A stretch of 45,904 nucleotides of DNA from sequence record NC_073064.1, one strand, 5' to 3'. Positions within the stretch are counted from its first letter, which is position 1; every line of letters starts with the position of its first letter. This document shows positions 8,462 through 31,452 of this stretch, one piece after another. The notes under the pieces are model-generated. The model was not told the origin of the DNA. It searched no databases and saw only the letters and a list, made by a program, of their open reading frames with translations. Source of the DNA: Escherichia phage vB_EcoS_PTXU06. The translations under genes and the position numbers were made by a program.

Positions 8462-9548
8462 TCAATATTTGGCGGATCGAATGATCCGCCGTCACATCTT
8501 CACCCAACGCCTGAGCAATGACCAGGCGCGAAGGGTGCTGGCTATGTGGGAGAAGTTCCGCCCCGCTTTACTGGGTAAGTTGACCGAGCTACTAGATGGT
8601 AAAAAGTCCATGAGCAACAAGGCACTTACCACACTGTTAACGCAACTAGACAAGACCGTCAAAACGGAACTGCGCGCCGAGTTTAAAGTGCTGGCGGAGA
8701 GCCTTCAGGAGTTCGCCGACACCGAGGCTGATTATCTCGCTGACACACTAACGGCAGCGATCCAGCCCGCTGTCGCCGTACCCGCTGTTGAAGTAGTTGG
8801 CGTTGTTACCGGCGCGCAGATTGCAGCGACTGCAGTGAAAAACCCGTTCCAGGGTAACACCATGATGCAATGGCCTGACTCACTTTCCGAGTGGACCAGG
8901 ACGCAGATCGGCAATCAGGTGCGCGCTGGATTCATCCAGGGCAAGCCGACTATGGAAATTATTGCGGACGTGAGGCGCGCGCTAGGCGGTCGTAGTGCGC
9001 AAGCAATCTCAAGCGTTGTTAAGTCCGCGGTCAACCACTATGCGGCGACCGCCCGCGAATTAATGGTAAAAGCTAATGATGATATTCTCGAAGGTCGCCA
9101 ATGGTTGGCTACATTGGACACGCATACTTCTCCCATGTGCCAGCTACGCGATCGCCTGTTTTATCCGGTTGCTGTTACTCCCGACACCAAAGGCAAGCGC
9201 GGCGGGAAAGTGGTGGCGGGATCACAATATGGCGCTGGTCCGGGCAAGCTGCATTATTGCTGCCGTTCGACGGAGACGTGGAAAGTCAAAGGTATGGAAG
9301 ATTGGCCCAGTGGTAAGCGTCCGGCACTGAAGGCTGACGCAGGCAGGTTGCTGAGTGAGCAGGTCGACGCGCAGACTGATTTCTTCTCCTGGGTGCAGCG
9401 CCAGCCGCGCCATATTCTGGAGGAATTATATGGGGTGCAACGCGCCGACCAGATTATGCGCGGCGTGAAAGTGCCGAAGATGTTTACCGATTCTGGCGAA
9501 CTGATGACTATTGCACAGCTTAAAAACCGGGGGTTATGGCGTGATTAA
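8445..9548 (+). CDS. head morphogenesis / minor head protein
   Basis: 367 aa directly after portal; positional call. Confidence 0.5.
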   Translation: MAKTINQYLADRMIRRHIFTQRLSNDQARRVLAMWEKFRPALLGKLTELLDGKKSMSNKALTTLLTQLDKTVKTELRAEFKVLAESLQEFADTEADYLADTLTAAIQPAVAVPAVEVVGVVTGAQIAATAVKNPFQGNTMMQWPDSLSEWTRTQIGNQVRAGFIQGKPTMEIIADVRRALGGRSAQAISSVVKSAVNHYAATARELMVKANDDILEGRQWLATLDTHTSPMCQLRDRLFYPVAVTPDTKGKRGGKVVAGSQYGAGPGKLHYCCRSTETWKVKGMEDWPSGKRPALKADAGRLLSEQVDAQTDFFSWVQRQPRHILEELYGVQRADQIMRGVKVPKMFTDSGELMTIAQLKNRGLWRD

Positions 9549-9870
9549 ATATGCAGCGATCGTACTGGTTATCGGTCTGGTGGTAGGATTCTGGCTAGGT
9601 GACTCCTATCGCGCTGGCGTAGTGGCGGAGGCGGCACAAGAAGCGCAAGCAGAAGCCCAACGGCAGCAAACTAAAGTTATTGAGCGCTCCGTGCAGGCCG
9701 AACAAGCCCGCGACGTAGAATACCGGACTATCACGAAAGAGGTTGTTAAATATGTTACGCGCCCTAACCGCCCTGATTGTAGTTTTGATGCTGAGCGCGT
9801 GCGGATCAAGCAACGTGCCGTTGATGCCGCTAACGGAGTCGGCACTGCGACCGCCGTGCAAGTTCGATAA
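9541..9870 (+). CDS. i-spanin (Rz-like)
   Basis: GTG start with CCGGGGG RBS 7 nt upstream; N-terminal TM helix (AAIVLVIGLVVGFWLG) then coiled-coil-like AEAAQEAQAEAQRQQ; contains an embedded lipoprotein ORF in another frame. Confidence 0.45.
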   Translation: MIKYAAIVLVIGLVVGFWLGDSYRAGVVAEAAQEAQAEAQRQQTKVIERSVQAEQARDVEYRTITKEVVKYVTRPNRPDCSFDAERVRIKQRAVDAANGVGTATAVQVR

Positions 9871-9982
9871 CCCGTCCGCGGACCCCGACGAAGATTTGAT
9901 GATTGACGTGAAAAATATGGAATGCGGCGCGAAGCTAAGGGCGCAGGTCCTGGAGTTGCAGCAAATGATTAAGGGGCCGTAA
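9752..9982 (+). CDS. o-spanin (Rz1-like outer-membrane lipoprotein)
   Basis: ATG 9752 with GAAAGAGG RBS; signal peptide with lipobox L-S-A-C (MLRALTALIVVLMLSACGSS); proline-rich; starts inside the i-spanin gene in a different frame. Confidence 0.55.
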   Translation: MLRALTALIVVLMLSACGSSNVPLMPLTESALRPPCKFDNPSADPDEDLMIDVKNMECGAKLRAQVLELQQMIKGP

Positions 9983-9995
9983 TGGCCCCCTTTTA
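9973..9995. terminator. rho-independent terminator between convergent genes
   Basis: GGGGCC-GTAAT-GGCCCC hairpin followed by TTTT; located between the plus-strand spanins and a minus-strand gene. Confidence 0.55.
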
Positions 9996-10760
9996 TTAGC
10001 GCGGAATACCGCAGATTTCGTTTAACGTCTTCACGTCCAGCGCCACCGCCGTGGACTTCGGCTTATCCGGGTATGGAATAAACTGTTCAACTTCAGGCCA
10101 CGCCTTGATCAGCTTCTTATCGGTATTGTGCATATCAAGCACGCCGGTAACGGTTAGTTTGAACGCGTCATACTTAGCACGCAACTCACGTCGGGCATTG
10201 TCGTTACGGTCCAGGCGCTTGCAGAAATCATGATCCGCCGGGAAATCCGCACGACAGCGCGGCTTATAGATCGGCAGCGCTTTCCCATCCTCGTCCACTT
10301 CGCACACAGAAGCCAGCATTACTTCTTCGAACCCAGGTACAATATCGCCGAGATCGGGAGATAGCTTATTCATGTATTTATATTCCCAGTATCCGCGATG
10401 TACTCGGTATTGTCGTCCGTCACCGCTCAATGACAGTGTGCGCACATTTCCGCCTGCGTTGATTTCGAAAGTGGCGTCGTAAACGCTGCCGATGCCTTTT
10501 GGGCGGTCAGCGTTATAACTATACGTCGCCTTGTTGGTGTATACGCTTACTCCGTACATCTGCGACGGGTCGTCGCCGATTGCTTTAATGCGCGCGAGTA
10601 GCTCGGCGAAAGTGCGAATGCCTTCCGGCATACAGTCCAGCGTAATGGCGTACGCCAGGTCGCGCGAGTCCATCATGATGGATTTGGCTTCGGTCGCGAT
10701 TTCATGGTCGCGCAGGATGTTAGCCAGGATCAGGTTTTTAATGTCTTTTGTCAGTCTCAT
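9996..10760 (-). CDS. hypothetical protein (minus-strand insert in structural block)
   Basis: 254-aa ORF with GAGGA RBS; opposite strand to all flanking structural genes; no recognisable motif. Confidence 0.6.
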   Translation of the reverse strand: MRLTKDIKNLILANILRDHEIATEAKSIMMDSRDLAYAITLDCMPEGIRTFAELLARIKAIGDDPSQMYGVSVYTNKATYSYNADRPKGIGSVYDATFEINAGGNVRTLSLSGDGRQYRVHRGYWEYKYMNKLSPDLGDIVPGFEEVMLASVCEVDEDGKALPIYKPRCRADFPADHDFCKRLDRNDNARRELRAKYDAFKLTVTGVLDMHNTDKKLIKAWPEVEQFIPYPDKPKSTAVALDVKTLNEICGIPR

Positions 10761-10803
10761 TTTTGTGTCCTCGTTGTTGGGGCTTTCGCCCCGTTTGGTT
10801 TAG

Positions 10804-11211
10804 TTAAAGTGCTTCTAGAATCTCGTAAAACTTATTTGCCAGCGCTTGGCGGCGTTCGAATTTTTCAGTGATAACCAATTCCGGGCGGTTAAATAGCTTT
10901 GCGTGGGTGTTCCAATTGAGGATTTCCGTTTCCATTATTTTCTTCCGGTTGTAGTCGGTGTTTTTGATGCTAAATTCCTTGATAGCGTCATTAAGAAAAT
11001 CAGTCATACACTCAACGTCTGTTCTCTTAACTTCGAACGTACGGGCCTCGATTGGGCTATTTGTGCGAAGTACGACGACTCCGCCGTGGTAGGTGTCGAC
11101 TACCATATACTTATAAGTCACCCCATCCCACTCCGGATCGAAAGGGCGCCCAAATACGTCGTCGGCTTTCCACACTTTCTGGTACGGTGTTTCTTTGATT
11201 AATGTTGGCAT
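10804..11211 (-). CDS. hypothetical protein (minus-strand insert in structural block)
   Basis: 135-aa ORF; region looks AT-richer than its flanks by eye; no recognisable motif. Confidence 0.55.
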   Translation of the reverse strand: MPTLIKETPYQKVWKADDVFGRPFDPEWDGVTYKYMVVDTYHGGVVVLRTNSPIEARTFEVKRTDVECMTDFLNDAIKEFSIKNTDYNRKKIMETEILNWNTHAKLFNRPELVITEKFERRQALANKFYEILEAL

Positions 11212-11284
11212 TTTGTTTTTCCTTCATGTCTCTGTTGGTGTGCAACCAATATATTGCAACCAATACCCGGATTGCAAGCGAATT

Positions 11285-11312
11285 TTGCGATTATTTTTAT
11301 CGCTGATAATAT
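11285..11312 (+). promoter_or_regulatory. candidate promoter for the scaffold/capsid operon (-35 TTGCGA, 16-bp spacer, -10 TAATAT)
   Basis: Read directly; two TGCAACCAAT direct copies lie just upstream (11241-11264). Confidence 0.3.
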
Positions 11313-11367
11313 TAAAGGCGTGAAGTCGAGCGGGAGGCCCGCTCTGCCACAATCCCAGGGGGATAGC

Positions 11368-12072
11368 ATGAAACTTACTAAAGCAGAATATGACGCGTTG
11401 CCGGAAGGTATGAAGGCGCTTTTTGTTGCCGATGGCGACGGGTATAAATCAACGTTCATGACCGCAGAAGAAGTACAGGCGGAAATCAAGGGTCTGAAAG
11501 AAAACAACGCGAAGCTGGTGAGCGAGAAGAAAGCAGAAGCCGAACGCCGCGCCGAAGCTGAGCGCCTTGCGAAAGAGAAAGAGGAAGCCGCCGCGCGCAA
11601 AAATGGCGACCTCGAAGCGATCGACAAGTCCTGGAAAGATAAGTTTGCTAAACACGAAGCAGACACATCGGGAAAAATCGAAGCCTACCGCAAGCAGATC
11701 CACGATCTCACCATCGGCAGCGCTGCCAAAGACCTGGCGTCGAAGCTGTTCGGCAAGAATGCGGGCATCATGCAACGCCACGTAATGGACCGCCTGACGC
11801 TGGAAGACGGCGAAGACGGCAGCTTGAAAGTGCGTGTCTTGCAGGATGGCAAACCGTCCGCGCTGACGATGGAAGAGCTTGAAAAAGAGTTCCGTAATAA
11901 CGCCGATTTTGCATCCGTCCTGGCTGGCACGCCAGCCGGTGGCGCGCCTAGCAAACCGACGCAGGTTGTCGAAGATGTGAAGTCGAAAATCACTATGGGC
12001 CATAGCTTCGGTATCACTGACCTTACGAAACAGGCGGGGGATATCATCGCGAAGATGGGCGACGACGAGTAA
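11368..12072 (+). CDS. putative head scaffolding protein
   Basis: Start at the ATG with AGGGGGA RBS (track start 11254 lies in the intergenic promoter region); charged coiled-coil-like sequence; immediately precedes the major capsid gene. Confidence 0.55.
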   Translation: MKLTKAEYDALPEGMKALFVADGDGYKSTFMTAEEVQAEIKGLKENNAKLVSEKKAEAERRAEAERLAKEKEEAAARKNGDLEAIDKSWKDKFAKHEADTSGKIEAYRKQIHDLTIGSAAKDLASKLFGKNAGIMQRHVMDRLTLEDGEDGSLKVRVLQDGKPSALTMEELEKEFRNNADFASVLAGTPAGGAPSKPTQVVEDVKSKITMGHSFGITDLTKQAGDIIAKMGDDE

Positions 12073-12169: not shown

Positions 12170-13270
12170 ATGTCTTTAACAGTGTTCCAGCGTAAACTCG
12201 TTACCGCGGTTACGCAAATGATCCCCGACAACCTGAACGTTTTCAACGCCGCCGCCAATGGCGCTGTTGTTCTCGGTACTGGTGAAGTGCTGAAGGATGT
12301 TGTTGAGAAAATGTCCGTAGGCTTGATCGCCAACCTCGTTACCGACCGTAACGCCTACGCCCCTGTCGGCACTCCGGCAACCGCGAAAGTGCTGGCTCGT
12401 ATGCTGACCAACTCGGTTAACCTTTCCGCAAAAGTGGGTCCGGTAGCAATCACTAAGGCTATGATGGCTAAGATCGAAACCAACGTTAACAGCGTTGCGG
12501 CTGAGATTGCGGCACAGGCTACTCAAGCGATTATGCTGCACTACCTGAAAGCTGGTATCGGCGCAAGTAAAGCGGCGATCGAAAGCAACGCAGCGGCAAA
12601 ATACACCCAACCGGCGCGCGTTGACGGCGTTGGCGGTCGTACCTTCCCGACCCTGGCAGACTTCCCGCTGGCGGCTTCTAAGTTCGGCGATCAGGCGTCT
12701 TTAATTAAATCCTGGTTTATGGACGGCGTTACCTGGGCAAACTTCATTGCATACCAGGCGCTCCCGTCTGCCGAGCAGGTATTCGCAATCGGCGATCTGC
12801 AGGTAATGGGTGATGGCCTGGGCCGTCGTTTCATTATCTCCGATGCCGCTGCCGATGCTATGGGCACGGGTAACATGCTGGGTCTGGTCCCTGGCGCTGT
12901 TGCGGTTACCACCAACGGCCTTGATATGCTGGCGCAGGAAAAAGGCGGTAACGAGAACATCGAGCGCTGGTGGCAGGGTGAGTTCGACTTCAACGTGGCT
13001 GTTAAAGGCTACCGTCTGAAGGCGTCCGCTCGTACCCCGATCGAAGGTGTGCGCTCGTTCAAACTGAGCGATATCACCACCTCCGCGAACTGGGAACTGG
13101 ACCAGGGCCAGGTAGACAACGCACCGGCAACCGTTCAGGACGTTGGCGCTGTAGGCGATGGTGATACTAAAGGCCGTCGTAAGACACAGGCTGCTCAGGA
13201 AGTGCCGACCCGCAACATCAAGGAAACGGCTGGCGTACTGGTTACGCTGACGGCGACTACCGCGTCTTAA
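12170..13270 (+). CDS. major capsid protein
   Basis: 366 aa after the scaffold gene; followed by a strong terminator; positional and size call. Confidence 0.7.
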   Translation: MSLTVFQRKLVTAVTQMIPDNLNVFNAAANGAVVLGTGEVLKDVVEKMSVGLIANLVTDRNAYAPVGTPATAKVLARMLTNSVNLSAKVGPVAITKAMMAKIETNVNSVAAEIAAQATQAIMLHYLKAGIGASKAAIESNAAAKYTQPARVDGVGGRTFPTLADFPLAASKFGDQASLIKSWFMDGVTWANFIAYQALPSAEQVFAIGDLQVMGDGLGRRFIISDAAADAMGTGNMLGLVPGAVAVTTNGLDMLAQEKGGNENIERWWQGEFDFNVAVKGYRLKASARTPIEGVRSFKLSDITTSANWELDQGQVDNAPATVQDVGAVGDGDTKGRRKTQAAQEVPTRNIKETAGVLVTLTATTAS

Positions 13271-22024: not shown

Positions 22025-22632
22025 CCACCTTTAAACTCTACGGCGTCTTAGGACGTCGTTTCGGTAAAGTGCATAAGCTGGACTGCTTCACGCCGGGCGA
22101 GGGTATCACCGGCCTGTGTGTGAAGTTACCAGGCCTACAGGACTTTTTAATGTCGGCCCACCTTGACAACATGATGTTCAAAGTGCGCAAGGGCAATCAC
22201 ACAATGACCGGCTACGATGAGCTGGGCGAGTTCCACGGCAACCGCGTAGTAACCATCGCCCCGGTTATGACTGGTGCAAAAAGCGGACTGGGCCAATTGC
22301 TGGCGGGTGTAGCAATCGTGGTGGCGTCGTTCTATACCGGCGGGCTTGCGACTGCCGCTTTCGGAGCTTCAGCGGCGACCGCGGCCTCTATTGGCGCAGC
22401 GACGTTTTCGTTCGGGATGTCTATGGCGCTGGGGGGCGTTATGCAATTGCTATCGCCGCAACCGAAAGGATTGCAGACACGGCAGGACGTGGATAACAAG
22501 GCGTCGTATGCGTTCGGCGGACCGGTAAACACGACCGCGCAAGGCACGGCACTTGGTGTATTATGGGGCGAACGTGAGATCGGCGGCGCTATTATTTCAG
22601 CCGGAATCGTAACAGAGGACTTGAACGAATGA
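22015..22632 (+). CDS. tail assembly protein I-like
   Basis: 205 aa; Gly/Ala-rich hydrophobic C-terminal half; position between K-like and J-like genes. Confidence 0.6.
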   Translation: MAMTTFKLYGVLGRRFGKVHKLDCFTPGEGITGLCVKLPGLQDFLMSAHLDNMMFKVRKGNHTMTGYDELGEFHGNRVVTIAPVMTGAKSGLGQLLAGVAIVVASFYTGGLATAAFGASAATAASIGAATFSFGMSMALGGVMQLLSPQPKGLQTRQDVDNKASYAFGGPVNTTAQGTALGVLWGEREIGGAIISAGIVTEDLNE

Positions 22633-25600
22633 CGATTATCTACGACGTCACTGGGCATAAAGGCGGCGGCGGCAAACAGCACACCCCGCAGGAGACGCCG
22701 GACAGCCTGCATTCGCTGGCTAAAATCCGCATCTTGCTTGCGCTGGGGGAAGGGGAGTTCGAAAGTATTACCAGCGCCAGCGAATTGCGGCAGCGAGTAT
22801 ATCTGGACGGCACGCCGATCCAGAACGCCGACCTGTCGGAAAACTTCCCCGGCGCGCGCGTGGAGTTCCGCCCAGGCACACAGCACCAGGACGTGATCCA
22901 CGGATTTTCAGCGGTAGAAAGCGAGCAGTCCGTCGGTGTAAAACTGGAAAACGGCACGCCGTGGGTGCGCCAGATTAATGACACCAGTCTTGACGCTGTG
23001 CGCATTCGAATCGGCATTCCGGCTTTGTACACCAACGAAGATAATGGCGACCTGGTGGGCGGGCGCATCGACTATAAAATCGTTGTGTACACCGATAACG
23101 CGGATCCGCGCGAGTTCAACTTCGCTGCCGTTGGTAAAACAATGTCGCTATATGAGCGCGACCACCGCATCGAATTACCGCCGAACGTGAATACCGGCTG
23201 GCGCGTGGAAGTTCACCGCACAACGGCAGATTCTACATCGGCGAAAGTGGTTAATGATATCCGGGTGCAATCCATCACTGAGATTATCGACGCCCGCCTG
23301 CGTTACCCGCTAACCGCGCTGTTGTTTGTGGAGTTCGACGCCAAAGCGTTCCAGAACATCCCGCGCGTGTCCATCAAGTGCAAAGGCCGCAAAGTTCTAA
23401 TACCGAACAACTACGACCCGATTAATCATACCTATTCCGGGGACTGGGATGGCACGTTCAAACGCGCATGGACGGATAACCCCGCGTGGCACTGGTACGA
23501 TATTTGTATTACTGAGCGCTTCGGCCTCGGTCGGCGTATCAAACCGCAAATGTTAAACCGGTACGCGCTCTACCAGATTGCGCAGCGCTGCGATCAGTTG
23601 GTCAGTGACGGCAACGGCGGGCGAGAAATCCGCTTTAAGAATGATATGTACATACAGTCGCAGACCGACGCCTGGACCGTGCTTAAGGATCTAGCTGCCA
23701 TCTTTGCCGGTATGACCTGGTGGGGAAACCAGATGTTGAATATCGTAAGTGACCAGCCGGTCGCAGCGGTATCGCACACTATCACCAACGCCTCGGTTAT
23801 TGATGGCAGATTTGACTACGCGTCAGGGAGCCAGAAAACCCGCTATTCCACGTTCGCGGTAGCATACGGCAACCCGAAAAACCACTATGATGACGCTATC
23901 GCAACGGGCCAGCGCGTCGAACTGGTGCGCCGCCATAAGATTAACCGTCTTGATATAACGGCGATCGGCTGTACGCGCGAATCTGAAGCGCAACGCCGCG
24001 GACACTGGGCGCTAATCTCCAACCAGTTGGACCAGCAGGTCAGCTTCAAGGTTGGCATGGAGGGGCTATTCTTTATTCCTGGTAGCGTAGTCGCGATCGC
24101 GGATACTAATATTTCCGGCGGATTCGAGACTCGCGGCGGTCGCCTGTTGTCAGACCCTGGCACGCGTACCGTGCTTAACACAGACAGCGAAATCACATTC
24201 CGCCCTGGTGATAAGTTCCTGGTGCGCACCGATAGCGGAAATGTGGAGACTCGCGAGATCGCCAGCGTCAACGGCAACAAGGTCACGCTAAAAACCGCAC
24301 TGGATGCCGACCCGATTCCAGACCAACCGTTTTGCGTTGATGGCGACGATATCCAGTTGCAAAAATTCCGCATCACCGATCTGGAGTATGACGACTCTAC
24401 GAGCACTTTCTCGGTGCGCGGGATTGAATACAACGATAGCAAATATGATGCCGTTGATAATGGCGCACGACTAGACCCGGGCATCTTTACGCAAGTGCCA
24501 GACGGGGTAATGAAGGGGCCGGAATCCGTGACCATCACCCCGTCGCAGATTTCATCGCAAGGACAGCTAATCACCAACGTGGATATTGTTTTCCCGCCGG
24601 TGAAAGATGCCGTTGTATACGAAATCCAGTGGCGACGTACCAGCTTGCAGAATATGGCAATCCAGTGGGGAAACGACTGGGTAAACATCCCCCGCACGGC
24701 ATCGAACGGCGCTCACATCCCAAATGTGTTTTCTGGTAACTACCAGGCCCGCGTCCGCGCGATCGGTATGGGCGAGATTTCATCCCCGTGGGTGGAGTCT
24801 GCCATCACGCCGGTAGAAGGTCGTCTCGGTGGGCTTAACGCGCCTATCATCACTAACGCGATTTCTGGCCTCCACCAGATTTTGTGGAAGTGGAACCATA
24901 ACAACGCCGCGACGGATATCTCTTACACCGAGCTTGAAGTGCGCAAGACTGGTGAAACGGAATGGAAATTTCTTACAAACGTCCCATATCCGGGGGCGGA
25001 GTATGCCCAAACGTCACTGGAGTTCGGGATCTATCAGCAGTTGCGCGCCCGTGTAGCGGATAAAATCGGCAACCTATCGGACTGGTCGGACCCGTTTGAA
25101 GGGCAGGTGAGTGACAAAGTTGACGAGTACATGAAGGGTCTTGATGACGAGTTCTTGACTTCCGAGGATGGTAAACGCTTCCAGGAAGCAATCGACACGA
25201 TCCCGCAGGGTATTTACGAGGCGATGCTCACCGACGCGCAGCAATTGTTCAACGCCCGCGCCGAGTACAAGGGTATTTATGCGGAAATCTCGGTCGCGTA
25301 TAACGTGGCGGCGGACGCCCACAAGGCGGTCGCCCAACTGGAGACGTTGATCGGCACGCGACTTGACGATGCGGAAGCGGCGATCCACACGTTGCAGACA
25401 GCGCAAAGCACGCACGAACAAGCGTTTGCCCAGTACCAGCAAACTGTTGCCGCTAAGTTCGGGGAACAGGAAGCCGCCATCCAGCAGGTGCAAACGGCAA
25501 CGGCAGACGTAGCGGGCGCGCTGGCGGAGTACAAGACCCAGGTCGCGGCACAGTTCGGTCAGCAGTCCGCCGCTATCGAGCAGAAGATGACGTCCACGTT

Positions 25601-26051
25601 TAACCATGCCGGTGGCAACGCCACATACCGCCTTAAGGCTGGCGTGACGTATAACGGGACTTACTACGATGCCGGTATGCAGCTTTCAGTTGTTGCGGAA
25701 GGTGGCGAGGTTAAATCCCGCATCGCGTTCAAGGCGGACCAGTTCTACATCATGCACCCATCTAACGGGTCGCTTTCGTCCGCGTTTATCGTGGACGGCG
25801 GCGCGGTGTATATTGACACGGCACGCATCAAGGACGCGACTATCAACTTCGCGCAGATCACGGACACGCTGCAATCGAATAACTATGACGGCTACTCGCG
25901 TGGCTGGCGCTTAGGGAAAGACGGAACGTTTATCAACCTGGGAACCGGTAACGGTGGCGGGGCGATGAAAATGACGAATGACACAATCAGCGTAAAGGAT
26001 TCTAACGGAGTTTTGCGAGTTCAGATTGGTAAAATCACGGGGGGTTGGTGA
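22629..26051 (+). CDS. host specificity protein J-like central tail fiber
   Basis: 1140 aa; N-terminus (HKGGGGKQHTPQE...) resembles lambda J-family proteins; terminal gene of the tail-tip operon. Confidence 0.85.
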   Translation: MTIIYDVTGHKGGGGKQHTPQETPDSLHSLAKIRILLALGEGEFESITSASELRQRVYLDGTPIQNADLSENFPGARVEFRPGTQHQDVIHGFSAVESEQSVGVKLENGTPWVRQINDTSLDAVRIRIGIPALYTNEDNGDLVGGRIDYKIVVYTDNADPREFNFAAVGKTMSLYERDHRIELPPNVNTGWRVEVHRTTADSTSAKVVNDIRVQSITEIIDARLRYPLTALLFVEFDAKAFQNIPRVSIKCKGRKVLIPNNYDPINHTYSGDWDGTFKRAWTDNPAWHWYDICITERFGLGRRIKPQMLNRYALYQIAQRCDQLVSDGNGGREIRFKNDMYIQSQTDAWTVLKDLAAIFAGMTWWGNQMLNIVSDQPVAAVSHTITNASVIDGRFDYASGSQKTRYSTFAVAYGNPKNHYDDAIATGQRVELVRRHKINRLDITAIGCTRESEAQRRGHWALISNQLDQQVSFKVGMEGLFFIPGSVVAIADTNISGGFETRGGRLLSDPGTRTVLNTDSEITFRPGDKFLVRTDSGNVETREIASVNGNKVTLKTALDADPIPDQPFCVDGDDIQLQKFRITDLEYDDSTSTFSVRGIEYNDSKYDAVDNGARLDPGIFTQVPDGVMKGPESVTITPSQISSQGQLITNVDIVFPPVKDAVVYEIQWRRTSLQNMAIQWGNDWVNIPRTASNGAHIPNVFSGNYQARVRAIGMGEISSPWVESAITPVEGRLGGLNAPIITNAISGLHQILWKWNHNNAATDISYTELEVRKTGETEWKFLTNVPYPGAEYAQTSLEFGIYQQLRARVADKIGNLSDWSDPFEGQVSDKVDEYMKGLDDEFLTSEDGKRFQEAIDTIPQGIYEAMLTDAQQLFNARAEYKGIYAEISVAYNVAADAHKAVAQLETLIGTRLDDAEAAIHTLQTAQSTHEQAFAQYQQTVAAKFGEQEAAIQQVQTATADVAGALAEYKTQVAAQFGQQSAAIEQKMTSTFNHAGGNATYRLKAGVTYNGTYYDAGMQLSVVAEGGEVKSRIAFKADQFYIMHPSNGSLSSAFIVDGGAVYIDTARIKDATINFAQITDTLQSNNYDGYSRGWRLGKDGTFINLGTGNGGGAMKMTNDTISVKDSNGVLRVQIGKITGGW

Positions 26052-26054
26052 TAT

Positions 26055-26076
26055 AGGGGCTTCGGCCCCTTCTATC
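26055..26076. terminator. bidirectional terminator-like hairpin
   Basis: AGGGGC-TTCG-GCCCCT hairpin between convergent genes; weak T-tract. Confidence 0.4.
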
Positions 26077-26689
26077 AATCGTATTTAGCCGCATCTATTG
26101 CGAGTATGGATGGTGAATAATAAACGCCGAGCGGCCCTGGTGTGTGGGCGACTTGCTTAGATATCGAATAAATGCTTGTTCCGGATGCGCCGGATTGTGA
26201 TTCATAAATCGCGTGCCCACCAATCTGAGGGGTGGGAACCGAGTTTATTGCCGTTTGTTGTGGCGATACGGCACATGTATACCCCAGATTAACATCAAAA
26301 GACAGACCATTTATCGGTATTTGGTGGGCCTCCAGCGGCAGCATTTTCCCGTGGTACACCATATTCCCAGCAGAATTATAGAATGCGATCCCGTAGTCTC
26401 CTGGCGGGGTAACCATATCACTAAAAGCATAAACCTTAATCCATCCGGGATTGTCGGTCTTGTCTAGCCGGAGCGCATGGTAACCCCCGTTATTTATGTG
26501 AGAGAATGCGGTGTACGCTCGCCCGCCCATCCTCACAAAGAAAAAGCACACGCGATCGAATGGTATTGGCGTTGTAAAAACAGAACCGCTATACACCCCC
26601 ATATCACCGCGACTTATTAAATTAACAGGCGTAAAATCCGGGCTTAACCAAATGGACCCATCCGGCTTTGTGATCTGCATTCCGTACAT
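26075..26689 (-). CDS. hypothetical protein
   Basis: 204-aa ORF with GGGGG RBS; 1-nt gap from the upstream ORF; no recognisable motif. Confidence 0.5.
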   Translation of the reverse strand: MYGMQITKPDGSIWLSPDFTPVNLISRGDMGVYSGSVFTTPIPFDRVCFFFVRMGGRAYTAFSHINNGGYHALRLDKTDNPGWIKVYAFSDMVTPPGDYGIAFYNSAGNMVYHGKMLPLEAHQIPINGLSFDVNLGYTCAVSPQQTAINSVPTPQIGGHAIYESQSGASGTSIYSISKQVAHTPGPLGVYYSPSILAIDAAKYD

Positions 26690-26690
26690 G

Positions 26691-26990
26691 CTACCCCCAA
26701 TACGTATATATAAATCTTGATTCGCCAGCGTTAAAGCCGCTCCAGGAGACAGTGTTGTCGCTTACGGATATTGATGGCGCACCCCAAGATGTGCCGTTCC
26801 AGGTATGCGTACCAACGTAACCTGCCTTTAAACTTTTCCCCGGCGGACGGTTGTGATACGTCTTGCTCCCGGATGGTTGTGTGAATTTGTCAAGAAAAAA
26901 AACCGGCGTTAACAGGCCTGTGACGTCACGACCATGTTCGTCATAAATCGCGTACCCATAGTTACTCACTTCTACACTCCACAATTTCAA
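26691..26990 (-). CDS. hypothetical protein
   Basis: 99-aa ORF, translationally coupled to the downstream gene. Confidence 0.45.
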   Translation of the reverse strand: MKLWSVEVSNYGYAIYDEHGRDVTGLLTPVFFLDKFTQPSGSKTYHNRPPGKSLKAGYVGTHTWNGTSWGAPSISVSDNTVSWSGFNAGESRFIYTYWG

Positions 26991-27231
26991 ATTTATCTTC
27001 GCTTTGCCATCTGTGAACGAAAGTTACAAATTTCTGTGATGGGGCTACTCGGTATTGTTTTTCGCCAAATCGGTTTTCACGCACCGCGTTTAGTTTAACA
27101 GGGTAGCTATCGTTTACGGGGAATGTTTTAACCGCATATTGGCCTACGCAATCGATAGCCTTGTAGTTGCCGTCTGGCGATGCGGAGCAACCGGACAAAA
27201 GAACCGCACAAATCATAATTAAAGTTTTCAT
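26962..27231 (-). CDS. small lipoprotein (candidate superinfection-exclusion / receptor-blocking protein)
   Basis: Start at the internal ATG with GGAGA RBS; signal peptide with lipobox L-S-G-C (MKTLIMICAVLLSGCSA); sits between two tail fiber genes. Confidence 0.5.
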   Translation of the reverse strand: MKTLIMICAVLLSGCSASPDGNYKAIDCVGQYAVKTFPVNDSYPVKLNAVRENRFGEKQYRVAPSQKFVTFVHRWQSEDKFEIVECRSE

Positions 27232-27311
27232 GGTATCATCTCCTATATTTGGTTGAGTTTTAGTATTACACCGCTCGATCAAGAATGCAACCAATTTACG
27301 AGGATTTAGCT

Positions 27312-29135
27312 ATGGCAGCGGGCACACTATCCGTAACGAATAACAGCAAGGCGGTTGTAGGGGTCGGGACAACGTTTACCGCGTTTAACGCTGGCGACTT
27401 CTTAACGCTGGTGGTAGGGCAAGTCCCCTACACCGTAGCAATCGCGTCCGTTGAAAGCGAAACCGCGCTTACGCTGGTGTTACCGTTCGACGGCCCAACG
27501 GCAACCGGCCTTGCGTGGGATGGCGTTAAGCGCGATACCATGTCACTGGCGACGATGGGCGTAACCGTACAGGCACAGAAAGCATTGCGCTTGATGCTTG
27601 CAGATGAAAACAACTGGCGTGCAATCTTCGGCGACGCTGAAGAAATAACCGTGACGTTGCCTAACGGGCAGGTAATGCAGGGTATGTCATGGGGATATCT
27701 GTCGCAGTTGATGAAACAGGTCGACCCAGTTGAGATGCGCAACCTGCAACAGCAAGCCGCCGCATCTGAAGCAGCCGCGCAGGGATACCGGAACGAGGCC
27801 GAAGGCTTCAAGACCGAGACGGCGGGCATTCGCGACGCCACCAATCAGATTAAGGCGGATACGCAGGCGATCCACGACGCCACTAATACCATCAAGACGC
27901 AGACTGACCTGATTAAGACTGATACTCAGGCCATCAAGGACCAGACGAACCAGATCAAGACTGACACCGGCGTTATTCGTGACGAAGCCAATATGGCGAA
28001 GACTGACGCGCAGGCCGCCAGCGCTGCCGCGCAGGGATTTCGCGATCAGGCCGAAGAATGGGCGCAAAGCGTAAACCCCGACAATCTGCTAACCAAATCC
28101 GGCAACCTCGCCGGGCTTGCGGACAAAAGTGCGTCGTGGGCTAACCTTATGCCGTCAGGACCGCTTCGCGTAGGTGCGGACCCCGTAAACACCCTGGACG
28201 CTGCGACTAAAGGGTGGGTGTGGCGCGGTCTTGATGACGTGGGGCTTTGGGGTTTACGCAATAACTACGCTTCAGAACCCGCAGGGGGTGCAGAAGTATA
28301 CGGCGGGCGCTTTGACTCCTCTGTGAACGTCGCAGGGACCGAAAAATACAGAATGTCGATACAGCTTCAGGGGCGTAATAACGTAGACGCCTGGACACGT
28401 TTGGCGACCGCTGACGTCCGCAGCATGGCGAACGCGGCGACGTGGGACTTTAAATATGATGGCAAGATTATTTTCAATAAGGGATTGAGTCCATCGTCCA
28501 CCTCGGCGTCGCCAGGTAATACCTACGTAACCCTTGCGAATACATGGATGGACAGCCAATACTCGGGACACGTCGGCTTTGTTGGAGGCGGGGCGGGGAC
28601 GAGTGGTGGCGGGTGGCGTAACTTTATTTCGTTCGGCGCGCTGATCCACCCGCCCACCGGTAACTCGCACCCCCATGCTATGATTGCGCAGGTCTTTGAT
28701 TATGATTTGGCGTCCGGGACACAGCCTAACGGCGATAGCGTTCGAAACACTACATTCAACCCCGAAGCATACGATATCACCTTCGGCAACAACTTAGGGA
28801 CTGTTAACTATATTTTCGCAAAGTCCCCGGTATCCGATAGGGCGCTGAAGCATGATATCGCCCGGATCGATACTCAAGTTGCGTACGATAACGTTATGAC
28901 TATGGAGTACTCGTCCTTTGTTTATAACTACGACAAAAAAGAGACGGTTAGACGTGGTTTTATCGCGCAGCAGTTGGAAGAGATCGACCCGCAGTATGTC
29001 CGCAAGTACACCAACGCAACCGGTAAAGAGTTTCTGGCATTAGATGAAAACGTCCTACTACTTGACCTAATCGCGACTGTTCAGCATTTGGCGGCGAAGG
29101 TTGAGGCGTTAGAAAGTAAGTTAGCGGAGAAATGA
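27312..29135 (+). CDS. side tail fiber with C-terminal intramolecular chaperone-like domain
   Basis: Start at ATG 27312 with GAGGA RBS; repetitive T/Q/D-rich shaft (IKTDTQAIKDQTNQIKTDTG); C-terminal SDRALKHDI...coiled coil resembles S74-type auto-cleaving chaperone domains. Confidence 0.7.
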   Translation: MAAGTLSVTNNSKAVVGVGTTFTAFNAGDFLTLVVGQVPYTVAIASVESETALTLVLPFDGPTATGLAWDGVKRDTMSLATMGVTVQAQKALRLMLADENNWRAIFGDAEEITVTLPNGQVMQGMSWGYLSQLMKQVDPVEMRNLQQQAAASEAAAQGYRNEAEGFKTETAGIRDATNQIKADTQAIHDATNTIKTQTDLIKTDTQAIKDQTNQIKTDTGVIRDEANMAKTDAQAASAAAQGFRDQAEEWAQSVNPDNLLTKSGNLAGLADKSASWANLMPSGPLRVGADPVNTLDAATKGWVWRGLDDVGLWGLRNNYASEPAGGAEVYGGRFDSSVNVAGTEKYRMSIQLQGRNNVDAWTRLATADVRSMANAATWDFKYDGKIIFNKGLSPSSTSASPGNTYVTLANTWMDSQYSGHVGFVGGGAGTSGGGWRNFISFGALIHPPTGNSHPHAMIAQVFDYDLASGTQPNGDSVRNTTFNPEAYDITFGNNLGTVNYIFAKSPVSDRALKHDIARIDTQVAYDNVMTMEYSSFVYNYDKKETVRRGFIAQQLEEIDPQYVRKYTNATGKEFLALDENVLLLDLIATVQHLAAKVEALESKLAEK

Positions 29136-30765: not shown

Positions 30766-30986
30766 TGTAAGCTCTCAATAAGGGTGTATCGGACGCTGCG
30801 CGCGGAAAACTTGTTACACACAAGATGCCAACGGGCGGTTATGACCAGCCAGCCGGTAAGATCCAGGCCCAGGATATATTCTGGACGTGACACGCGCTTC
30901 ACACGATCGCGGCGCGGGTCGATGTTATAGTCTATTTGCATTCGGACTACTACCGCAGGGTCGCGGTCAACGATTAAGATATTCAA
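30762..30986 (-). CDS. hypothetical protein
   Basis: 74-aa ORF overlapping both neighbours. Confidence 0.4.
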   Translation of the reverse strand: MNILIVDRDPAVVVRMQIDYNIDPRRDRVKRVSRPEYILGLDLTGWLVITARWHLVCNKFSARSVRYTLIESLQ

Positions 30987-31452
30987 GGAGTTCTCCTTCG
31001 CTCATTATTTCAATTTGTGCGCTGCCGATGGGTGGCGCTTCGTCAAAGATTATCAATTGCTGGCACTTGTTATTGCTCGGCCCGACTTCGCCGGTGACGG
31101 CGTGAATGAATCTAATCCGCCAGTCCAGAAGAATTATCAGGTTTGCAGTCTTCCGGGCCAGCTTCGCCCACTTCGTCGACGTGTCCTGATTCAGTAGCAT
31201 GACAGTCCGGCGTCCGTGCGCTGCGCACTCAACCCACGGCAGCGGATCGGAATACGGCGGATTGCACCACTTCCACCCTTTCAACTCTGCCCAGTCCACA
31301 TCAAGCGCGCTGTGCTCTGCCGTGAAGTAACGCGGTAGCAGATGGTTGGCGTCGCTTGCCGCCATGTCATAACGGAATCGGTACTTCCGGCGCAGCGGTT
31401 TAAATAAAGCTGGCGGCGTGCGCCAGCTATCTTTTTGCTCACTCTTCTGCAT
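30967..31452 (-). CDS. DNA N6-adenine methyltransferase (phage Dam-like)
   Basis: 161 aa; N-terminal WRTPP and catalytic NPPYS motif typical of small phage N6A methyltransferases. Confidence 0.75.
   Translation of the reverse strand: MQKSEQKDSWRTPPALFKPLRRKYRFRYDMAASDANHLLPRYFTAEHSALDVDWAELKGWKWCNPPYSDPLPWVECAAHGRRTVMLLNQDTSTKWAKLARKTANLIILLDWRIRFIHAVTGEVGPSNNKCQQLIIFDEAPPIGSAQIEIMSEGELLEYLNR

Follow-up and report, generated by a model that had tools for sequence, protein, structure and literature searches.

The window analysed here is the complete 45,904 bp genome of Escherichia phage vB_EcoS_PTXU06 (NC_073064.1), a Dhillonvirus (HK578-like virulent siphophage of E. coli). Between its spanin genes and its scaffold and major capsid genes lie two genes on the minus strand, one encoding a 254 amino acid (aa) protein of the Nmad5 family and the other a 135-aa protein. 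Our reading, which we hold to be probable though far from certain, is that they constitute a leftward two-gene accessory operon lodged in a cassette slot found across this virulent genus, with the mechanism and functions proposed below. The locus is an ordinary kind of feature, a hypervariable accessory slot with a putative promoter in a virulent siphophage. Its Nmad5 occupant is already known and has been characterised genetically, and the other occupant is a rare orphan gene. The parts of the locus, from left to right, are as follows.

9511-9870 and 9743-9982, plus strand: overlapping spanin pair of Rz/Rz1 type (spanins are annotated in phage BMA1)
9973-9989, both strands: G+C-rich hairpin GGGGCCGTAATGGCCCC overlapping the o-spanin stop codon (from a terminator scan and RNA folding)
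9996-10760, minus strand: nmad5, 254 aa, ATG start, matching Pfam Nmad5 (PF18757), in the promoter-distal slot position
10761-10803, minus strand: intercistronic junction, a hairpin and then a GAGGA ribosome-binding site for nmad5
10804-11211, minus strand: the 135-aa gene (cassette B), ATG start, in the promoter-proximal slot position
11212-11232, minus strand: cassette-specific 5′ leader with an AAGGA ribosome-binding site for the 135-aa gene (read from the sequence)
11233-11367, both strands: genus-conserved divergent regulatory region (from a promoter scan, repeats and an alignment of 17 loci)
11368-12072, plus strand: scaffold gene
12170-13270, plus strand: major capsid gene

A preliminary description of this DNA had claimed two minus-strand open reading frames (ORFs) of 254 and 135 aa between the spanins and the scaffold and capsid genes. 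Both were found at exactly the coordinates listed, with the spanin pair on one side and the scaffold and major capsid genes on the other, and both coding sequences (CDSs) are annotated likewise in the closest GenBank relative, vB_EcoS_Zar3M. The region 9400-12200 matches 157 phage records, nearly all of them Escherichia Dhillonvirus, and Zar3M is the top match (96.2% identity, coordinates identical). Because both ORFs have homologues and the ratio of nonsynonymous to synonymous divergence (dN/dS) is 0.12 for nmad5 and 0.12 for the 135-aa gene, as expected under purifying selection, they are not chance ORFs. One annotated relative has its lysis, packaging, head and tail genes on the plus strand and its replication and early genes on the minus strand. 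No integrase is annotated in that relative, so we take the host phage to be virulent and see no lysogenic-conversion role for the genes in the slot.

We compared the slot in 20 Dhillonvirus loci, comprising 15 IMG/VR loci anchored on the conserved scaffold gene, plus GenBank relatives. The interval from spanin to scaffold contains minus-strand genes in all 20 loci, drawn from at least five cassettes with the same leader, and the slot is empty in none. The cassettes, all on the minus strand, are these.

Cassette A: Nmad5, full-length in about 145 GenBank phage records
Cassette B: the 135-aa gene, in 5 GenBank phage records and 6 of the 20 loci
Cassette C: a 104-aa protein (phrog_24635), in 72 GenBank phage records
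Cassette D: a 170-aa protein with a sub-threshold beta-clamp match, in ~16 Dhillonvirus records plus ~258 distant copies
Cassette E: a 53-aa protein

They are arranged as B+A, C+A, D+A, E+A, A alone, B alone (HK578), D alone and C+D. HK578 and the loci L018, L021 and L028 lack Nmad5, which occurs without an upstream gene in L004, L016, L022, L024, L030 and L009. Three loci bear scars. In HK578 the junction hairpin, the ribosome-binding site and the first 11 nt of nmad5 are fused to the terminator, in L028 the last ~18 nt of nmad5 lie beside cassette D, and L017 retains a 3′ remnant of cassette C. As remnants of nmad5 persist in genomes that lack Nmad5, the alignments identify Nmad5 as the ancestral gene of the slot, which has disappeared or been displaced on several occasions. 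Hypervariability is found at the promoter-proximal position, where cassette B is the rarest of the genes seen.

Base composition sets the two genes apart. By percentiles taken from 408-bp windows across the genome, the 135-aa gene, with a GC content of 45.1% against a genome mean of 54.4%, falls in the lowest 0.9% of windows, and its GC content at third codon positions is 0.54 versus 0.61-0.67 in its neighbours. The AT-richness that had been ascribed to 10804-11211 was confirmed. At 52.4% (19th percentile) nmad5 is ordinary, so that windowed GC content points to a foreign origin for the 135-aa gene and not for nmad5.

The two genes had been presented as a single moron-like insert, to be checked for presence or absence in related phages. 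Absence from most relatives holds for the 135-aa gene (5 of about 157 records) and does not hold for Nmad5, which about 145 of about 157 related records carry at full length (~90% of the Dhillonvirus records) and which is quasi-core. With this distribution, its genome-typical composition and the 5′ and 3′ remnants left where it was lost, Nmad5 is not a recent insert. Nor do the genes form one unit: B occurs in HK578 in the absence of Nmad5, Nmad5 occurs by itself in many phages, and in Serratia and Erwinia phages B is found elsewhere, with no Nmad5 match in the locus. Composition like that of the rest of the genome, conserved presence and clear structural homologues had been named as grounds for abandoning the idea of an insert; Nmad5 shows the first two, and no structural (virion) homologue was found for it. 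What stands is an accessory insert of moron-like kind, most clearly so for the 135-aa gene, whereas Nmad5 is quasi-core and of ordinary composition, and the two genes are independent of one another.

The motif-rich divergent region that had been noticed at 11212-11367 is indeed present. About 135 nt of it (11233-11367) are almost invariant in 17 relatives irrespective of the adjoining gene, and between loci with differing cassettes the similarity stops at about 11233. The direct repeat TGCAACCAATA occurs twice (11241-11251 and 11255-11265), there are three TTGCAA/TGCAA motifs within 11212-11367, and one sigma70-like site on the minus strand combines a -35 element TTGCAA (11277-11272) and a -10 element TATATT (11253-11248) across an 18-nt spacer. 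In the 17 loci, -35 TTGC and -10 TATATT are kept across the genus and the spacer is variable. On the plus strand, TTGCGA (11285-11290) and TAATAT (11307-11312) make up a candidate promoter, and RNA folding places a leader hairpin at about 11328-11344, ahead of the scaffold gene.

At the opposite end of the slot, the 9973-9989 hairpin (-16.3/-16.4 kcal/mol on the two strands, z about -3) is kept in 17 of 17 aligned relatives and has a clean U-tract on the plus strand only. It reads as the canonical terminator of the plus-strand spanin operon and is likely the 3′ boundary of the minus-strand accessory operon. The terminator that had been proposed on this side is therefore canonical for the spanin operon, and for the two minus-strand genes it is a hairpin with a weak U-tract. 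Between the genes lies the junction hairpin CGGGGCGAAAGCCCCA with a GNRA loop (10778-10793; -11.5 kcal/mol, z = -3.5 on the minus strand). Wherever cassette B, C or D precedes Nmad5, the 3′ junction is the same, ...AACTAAACCAAnCGGGGCGAAAGCCCC...GAGGACAC...ATG. Jointly, the 10778-10793 and 9973-9989 hairpins could stop transcripts of the spanin operon from continuing into nmad5 in the antisense direction. On the minus strand, where it has no U-tract, the 10778-10793 hairpin may be an mRNA processing or stabilising element. This hairpin also scores as an intrinsic terminator on the plus strand, with a TTTGGTTT tail after it, and the annotators of HK578 placed terminators at the site of the intercistronic junction too.

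The 254-aa ORF had been described as having unknown function. It belongs to a known family, with a full-length match to PF18757 (191.6 bits against a cutoff of 27, E = 2.2e-56, residues 1-253, model positions 1-206 of 206) and a match to phrog_1965 (E = 7e-61), and its genetics has already been done in the genus (Yamashita et al., 2025, Commun Biol 8:290, PMC11846954). In that work, escapers from the Tmn defence arose spontaneously in SM_A8 and in SM_S22 (with anti-Tmn deleted) and had a nmad5 substitution in common, K216E in SM_A8 and K296E in SM_S22; reversion of the substitution brought Tmn sensitivity back. Attempts to clone nmad5 failed, apparently owing to toxicity, and a phage with nmad5 deleted was viable and still Tmn-sensitive. 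The authors read Nmad5 as a base-modification protein (PMC11846954). The SM_A8 and SM_S22 proteins are orthologs of the one in the window, with the same genomic position and strand. That of SM_A8 also has 254 aa and is 89% identical, with 254 of 254 residues aligned without gaps and K216 present in both (...NTDKKLIKAWPE...). SM_A8 differs in that its Nmad5 stands beside the common 104-aa cassette C and not beside the rare 135-aa gene. Given this orthology, the published toxicity, dispensability and escape from Tmn by K216E very probably apply to the Nmad5 of the window. The link between Nmad5 and Tmn, that the K216E point mutant escapes and the deletion does not, is the only experimental link to defence at this locus.

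K216 lies inside the part of Nmad5 that has changed least. The C-terminal module, (K/R)LIxxWPE...TAVALDVKTLNEICGIP, is near-invariant, and the C-terminus K(S/T)TAVALDVKTLNEICGIPR is invariant in homologues down to 35% identity. The tail motif is kept in lambdoid, Yua/M6 and Guernseyvirinae homologues (26-35% overall identity), at 26-30% identity in a reduced form, (K/R)L(I/V)xxWPE...(S/T)xA(V/I)AL...LN...G(I/L)P, with L217, W221, P222, P229, A238, A240, L241, L246, N247, G251 and P253 invariant down to 26% identity. In codons 181-254 omega is 0.01-0.04 and synonymous divergence is normal (pS 0.35-0.42), which indicates a constraint on the Nmad5 tail at the protein level. The same values exclude a cause at the DNA level, such as an overlapping regulatory element or a recombination site. 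Codons 41-60 are the least constrained (omega 0.47). The likeness to PF18757/PHROG 1965 consists of an N-terminal helix and the C-terminal WPE...AL...LN...G(I/L)P signature; the Dhillonvirus proteins differ in having a lineage-specific, beta-rich middle that is ~48 residues larger (254 aa versus the 206-position model). No enzyme-like fold was detected for Nmad5, and sequence-profile searches of the PDB with the Nmad5 and 135-aa families gave nothing below E = 0.6.

The 135-aa protein has no significant family in Pfam, PHROG, NCBIfam or PADLOC. In these general library scans we found no homology or activity that ties it to any anti-defence family, and the only match for the neighbouring protein was Nmad5/phrog_1965. 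A word-indexed search of 5.8 billion proteins gave four clusters for its family. An exhaustive HMMER search of 1.84 billion representatives gave six matches, two of them credible further clusters; the other four, judged from their sequences, are tandem-repeat proteins with summed repeat scores, and we rejected them as spurious. In the genus, the gene occurs in five records representing three phages (Zar3M, HK578 and SM_W22). Homologues at 52-56% identity occur in six Serratia siphophage records and in Erwinia phage Snitter; the gene lies among small early genes in Snitter and, in the Serratia phage, separates the tail-tip module from the replication module. No Nmad5 match was found in the fetched Serratia or Snitter loci. 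All these carriers are phages, and the gene is spread patchily over unrelated ones. E. coli genomes and plasmids were considered as a source of the AT-rich gene and were excluded, as there was no match in 5,426 complete E. coli genomes or in PLSDB plasmids. The AlphaFold2 (AF2) model, with a mean predicted local distance difference test score (pLDDT) of 87.7, has an N-terminal four-stranded sheet and then three helices. Its structure matches in the PDB are generic helical ones, and Foldseek against BFVD returned two significant matches, both to uncharacterised coliphage proteins. Remote homology and structure prediction, which the preliminary description had proposed, thus placed Nmad5 in a family and, for the 135-aa protein, turned up neither a homologue nor a fold match that is informative.

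Could the 135-aa gene be a selfish or neutral hitch-hiker, or a decaying gene without a function for the phage? It is very rare, its composition is foreign, and in the SM_W22 copy (L002:2905-3423) 37 residues of the C-terminal helical part (RKKIMETEILNWNTHAKLFNRPELVITEKFERRQAL) are duplicated in tandem and in frame, which lengthens the protein to 172 aa. We regard this explanation as highly unlikely, since a dN/dS of 0.08-0.15 over a dS of about 0.3 between lineages denotes sustained purifying selection, the ribosome-binding site is intact, a compact fold is predicted with confidence, and 52-56% identity has been retained in the Serratia and Erwinia phages. From its sequence record the 135-aa gene is a real, selected and horizontally mobile phage gene, and a low-priority orphan. 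A toxin-antitoxin or effector-chaperone pair, in which the 135-aa protein neutralises or assists a host-toxic Nmad5, would agree with two genes that are adjacent and apparently co-transcribed, with 43 nt and a hairpin between them, and with the toxicity of Nmad5 when cloned alone. The census leaves this idea scarcely credible: the distributions of the two genes are independent, Nmad5 lacks an upstream gene in the six loci named above, ~70 records couple it with the unrelated 104-aa gene, and the 135-aa gene occurs without it in HK578 and in the fetched Serratia and Erwinia loci. Obligate co-occurrence fails, and a toxin-antitoxin-like pairing is largely refuted.

The Nmad domains were reportedly defined by Iyer et al. 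in 2013 from base-modification gene neighbourhoods, and the Pfam name of PF18757 is "nucleotide modification associated domain 5." Nmad5 might accordingly be an enzyme, or an obligatory cofactor, of phage DNA base modification, with Tmn sensing or failing to sense the modified DNA. This is how Yamashita et al. interpreted it; in M6/SN1-like Pseudomonas phages the gene is within a thymidine-hypermodification cassette, and the polar residues H19, E154, H177, D187, R190 and R191 are widely conserved. We nevertheless think it quite unlikely here. The genome differs from those from which the name derives in lacking a base-hypermodification neighbourhood, by the ten non-structural ORFs scanned and the annotated relative: the neighbours of nmad5 are spanin, scaffold and capsid genes and a variable cassette. 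The only modification gene among the ten scanned ORFs encodes a Dam-family N6-adenine methyltransferase in the early region (30967-31452, minus strand; Pfam PF05869, E = 2e-35), 20 kb from nmad5. The annotated relative adds a second putative methyltransferase, and homologues of aGPT-Pplase, hmdU kinase and thymidylate synthase occur neither in the ten ORFs nor in that relative. In the lambdoid phage mEp235, Nmad5 belongs to the pL operon, with N/Nun and cIII on its two sides and erf/ssb/exo downstream; its neighbours in Klebsiella phage VLCpiS11a are exonuclease, single-stranded DNA-binding protein and polymerase genes; and in a metagenomic phage (L010) it follows a PolA gene. The surroundings that these homologues share are, by gene order, early, replication or recombination neighbourhoods and not base modification, and for this reason we treat the label "DNA modification enzyme" as unsupported for Nmad5 in Dhillonviruses.

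The same contexts bear on whether the two proteins are head-assembly or injected internal proteins, the Nmad5 tail being a capsid-targeting or ejection signal. The slot does have a Mu-F-like head-morphogenesis gene on one side and the scaffold and capsid genes on the other, and the short, invariant, disordered terminal peptide could act as a targeting signal. An unrelated phage also keeps Nmad5 at an equivalent place. On this metagenomic 62-kb contig (L008:4892-10322), an opposite-strand island of ~5.5 kb and ~15 small genes, among them a Nmad5 homologue (35% identity) and a Gp54-family gene, is situated between Mu-F/spanin-like (DUF2514) genes and scaffold/capsid genes, which suggests that the head-module position is a recurrent accessory hot spot. 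We give the head-protein explanation very little weight, because the strand is opposite to that of all structural genes, the content of the slot is variable, Nmad5 is absent from the viable HK578, L018, L021 and L028 and is experimentally dispensable, and in other lineages the family is found in early and replication regions, not in head modules.

We therefore return to the accessory operon and set out how it might work. The slot is bounded by the spanin genes, which come after a head-morphogenesis gene, and by the scaffold and capsid genes. The conserved sigma70-type promoter in the divergent region would drive transcription of whatever cassettes follow it, in the direction antisense to the late structural genes, and transcription would stop at the hairpin shared with the spanin operon. 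Illegitimate recombination, or recombination across short homologies, would account for the exchange, insertion and deletion of cassettes, and would act at three conserved boundaries: the leader, the junction with the GNRA hairpin, and the terminator. Here the promoter-proximal position is taken by the rare, AT-rich gene for the 135-aa protein, probably acquired horizontally and with a cytoplasmic product, and the distal position by the ancestral Nmad5; neither protein would be a virion or assembly component. Nmad5 is most likely non-enzymatic, toxic to the host and connected with phage DNA replication or recombination, and its C-terminal module, including K216, may serve as a protein-docking surface. 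The 135-aa protein most likely belongs among the strain-specific host-interaction or counter-defence factors that fill such slots. Counter-defence or host takeover is, plausibly, the most reasonable functional class for either gene. Of this picture, the reality of the genes, the families they belong to, the build of the slot, the independence of the two genes, their composition and the selection on them come from the present analysis, and Tmn escape, toxicity and dispensability from published work, whereas the use of the promoter, docking, the tie to replication and counter-defence are inferred.

Several observations weigh against this proposal. The promoter is a single consensus-level match, with one site observed and 2.4 expected, and thus no enrichment over shuffled sequences, and the minus-strand side of the terminator has no good U-tract. 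AF2 confidence in the Nmad5 tail is low (pLDDT 49-67). The family name and the M6/SN1 context indicate base modification. For the 135-aa protein, the case for counter-defence consists of location, variability and composition. Finally, since deletion of nmad5 leaves Tmn sensitivity unaltered (PMC11846954), the part played by the wild-type protein in the interaction with Tmn is ambiguous.

Tmn is activated by RIIB of phage T2, described as anchoring the replisome to the membrane, in a 2026 preprint that does not mention Nmad5 (PMC13001434). By analogy, this activation fits a replication-linked Nmad5 without proving it. A bolder version, which we regard as unlikely, is that Nmad5 is a mis-named but widespread early phage protein of Dhillonvirus, lambdoid/Stx, Yua/M6, Guernseyvirinae and other phages whose tail docks onto a conserved replication, recombination or membrane-replisome component of host or phage, and that the slot is a dedicated counter-defence hot spot. 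If this were true, Tmn would read out the docking interface of Nmad5, much as with T2 RIIB, and host immunity or replication control would have new inhibitors in the 135-aa protein and the other cassettes, among them the truncated beta-clamp-like one.

Morons and hypervariable accessory slots, a concept of Hendrix and Juhala, are known for example from the lambda region downstream of N and from sites among head and tail genes. The present locus resembles them in having extra genes between conserved neighbours, with their own promoter-like site and hairpin and with transcription that may be independent of the late operon around them. It also resembles them in presence or absence among close relatives and in the foreign base composition of the 135-aa gene. 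It differs in that the regulatory region is fixed and conserved across the genus rather than brought in with each gene, in that the phage is virulent, and in that no slot among the 20 loci is empty.

The published anti-Tmn protein (ORF35 of SM_S22) is, like the 135-aa protein, a small, phage-specific and sporadic Dhillonvirus accessory protein. ORF35 is elsewhere in the genome, compared with CDS6 for nmad5 (CDS7 in SM_A8), and its fold is an N-terminal helical rod followed by a C-terminal three-stranded sheet (PMC11846954), a domain order opposite to that modelled for the 135-aa protein. Identity of the 135-aa gene with anti-Tmn is excluded by genome position, by frequency (85 homologues versus about 5 records) and by the predicted domain order.

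Among the other occupants of the slot, cassette D was found in L017 (2840-3352), L018 (2839-3351) and L028 (2480-2998), and also in L021 and Shigella phage EP23. Its protein contains DVRYYLNG...ATDGHRLF, a beta-sliding-clamp motif, and matches Pfam DNA_pol3_beta_2 at 23 bits (cutoff 27), phrog_947 "processivity factor" at E = 1e-9 and phrog_3007 at E = 1.6e-55. By these matches it looks like a truncated clamp-like protein. The family is present in 274 phage records, mostly of Salmonella, Klebsiella and Escherichia siphophages, and it can stand in for Nmad5.

For annotation, these results mean that the 254-aa gene should be named Nmad5 and that, in Dhillonviruses, the name "DNA modification enzyme" lacks justification. 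Two leads are the most useful: the C-terminal module of Nmad5 with K216, which could be a docking interface, and the slot. As K216 is in the one Nmad5 module conserved across very distant phages, it offers a testable handle on how non-T-even phages influence Tmn. Dhillonviruses are in use against E. coli, and the slot, which has a putative promoter and accommodates at least five different cargo genes as well as deletion, offers a natural, ready-made place to insert engineered payloads and to seek host-range determinants.

Two further features of the genome were noted. The i-/o-spanin pair (9511-9982, plus strand), following the head-morphogenesis gene, is ~7 kb from the holin and endolysin genes (~1.8-2.9 kb), and the lysis cassette is therefore split. 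A second opposite-strand insert, at 26075-27294 on the minus strand, comprises three ORFs of 204, 99 and 110 aa between a tail-tip J-like gene (22629-26051, plus strand) and a tail-fibre gene (27285-29135, plus strand). The 204-aa ORF has no Pfam match, and the lowest-GC 408-bp window of the genome (42.4%, ~26890) is within this insert. At the same site the relative Pandora71 has other genes, including one for a DUF6453 protein.

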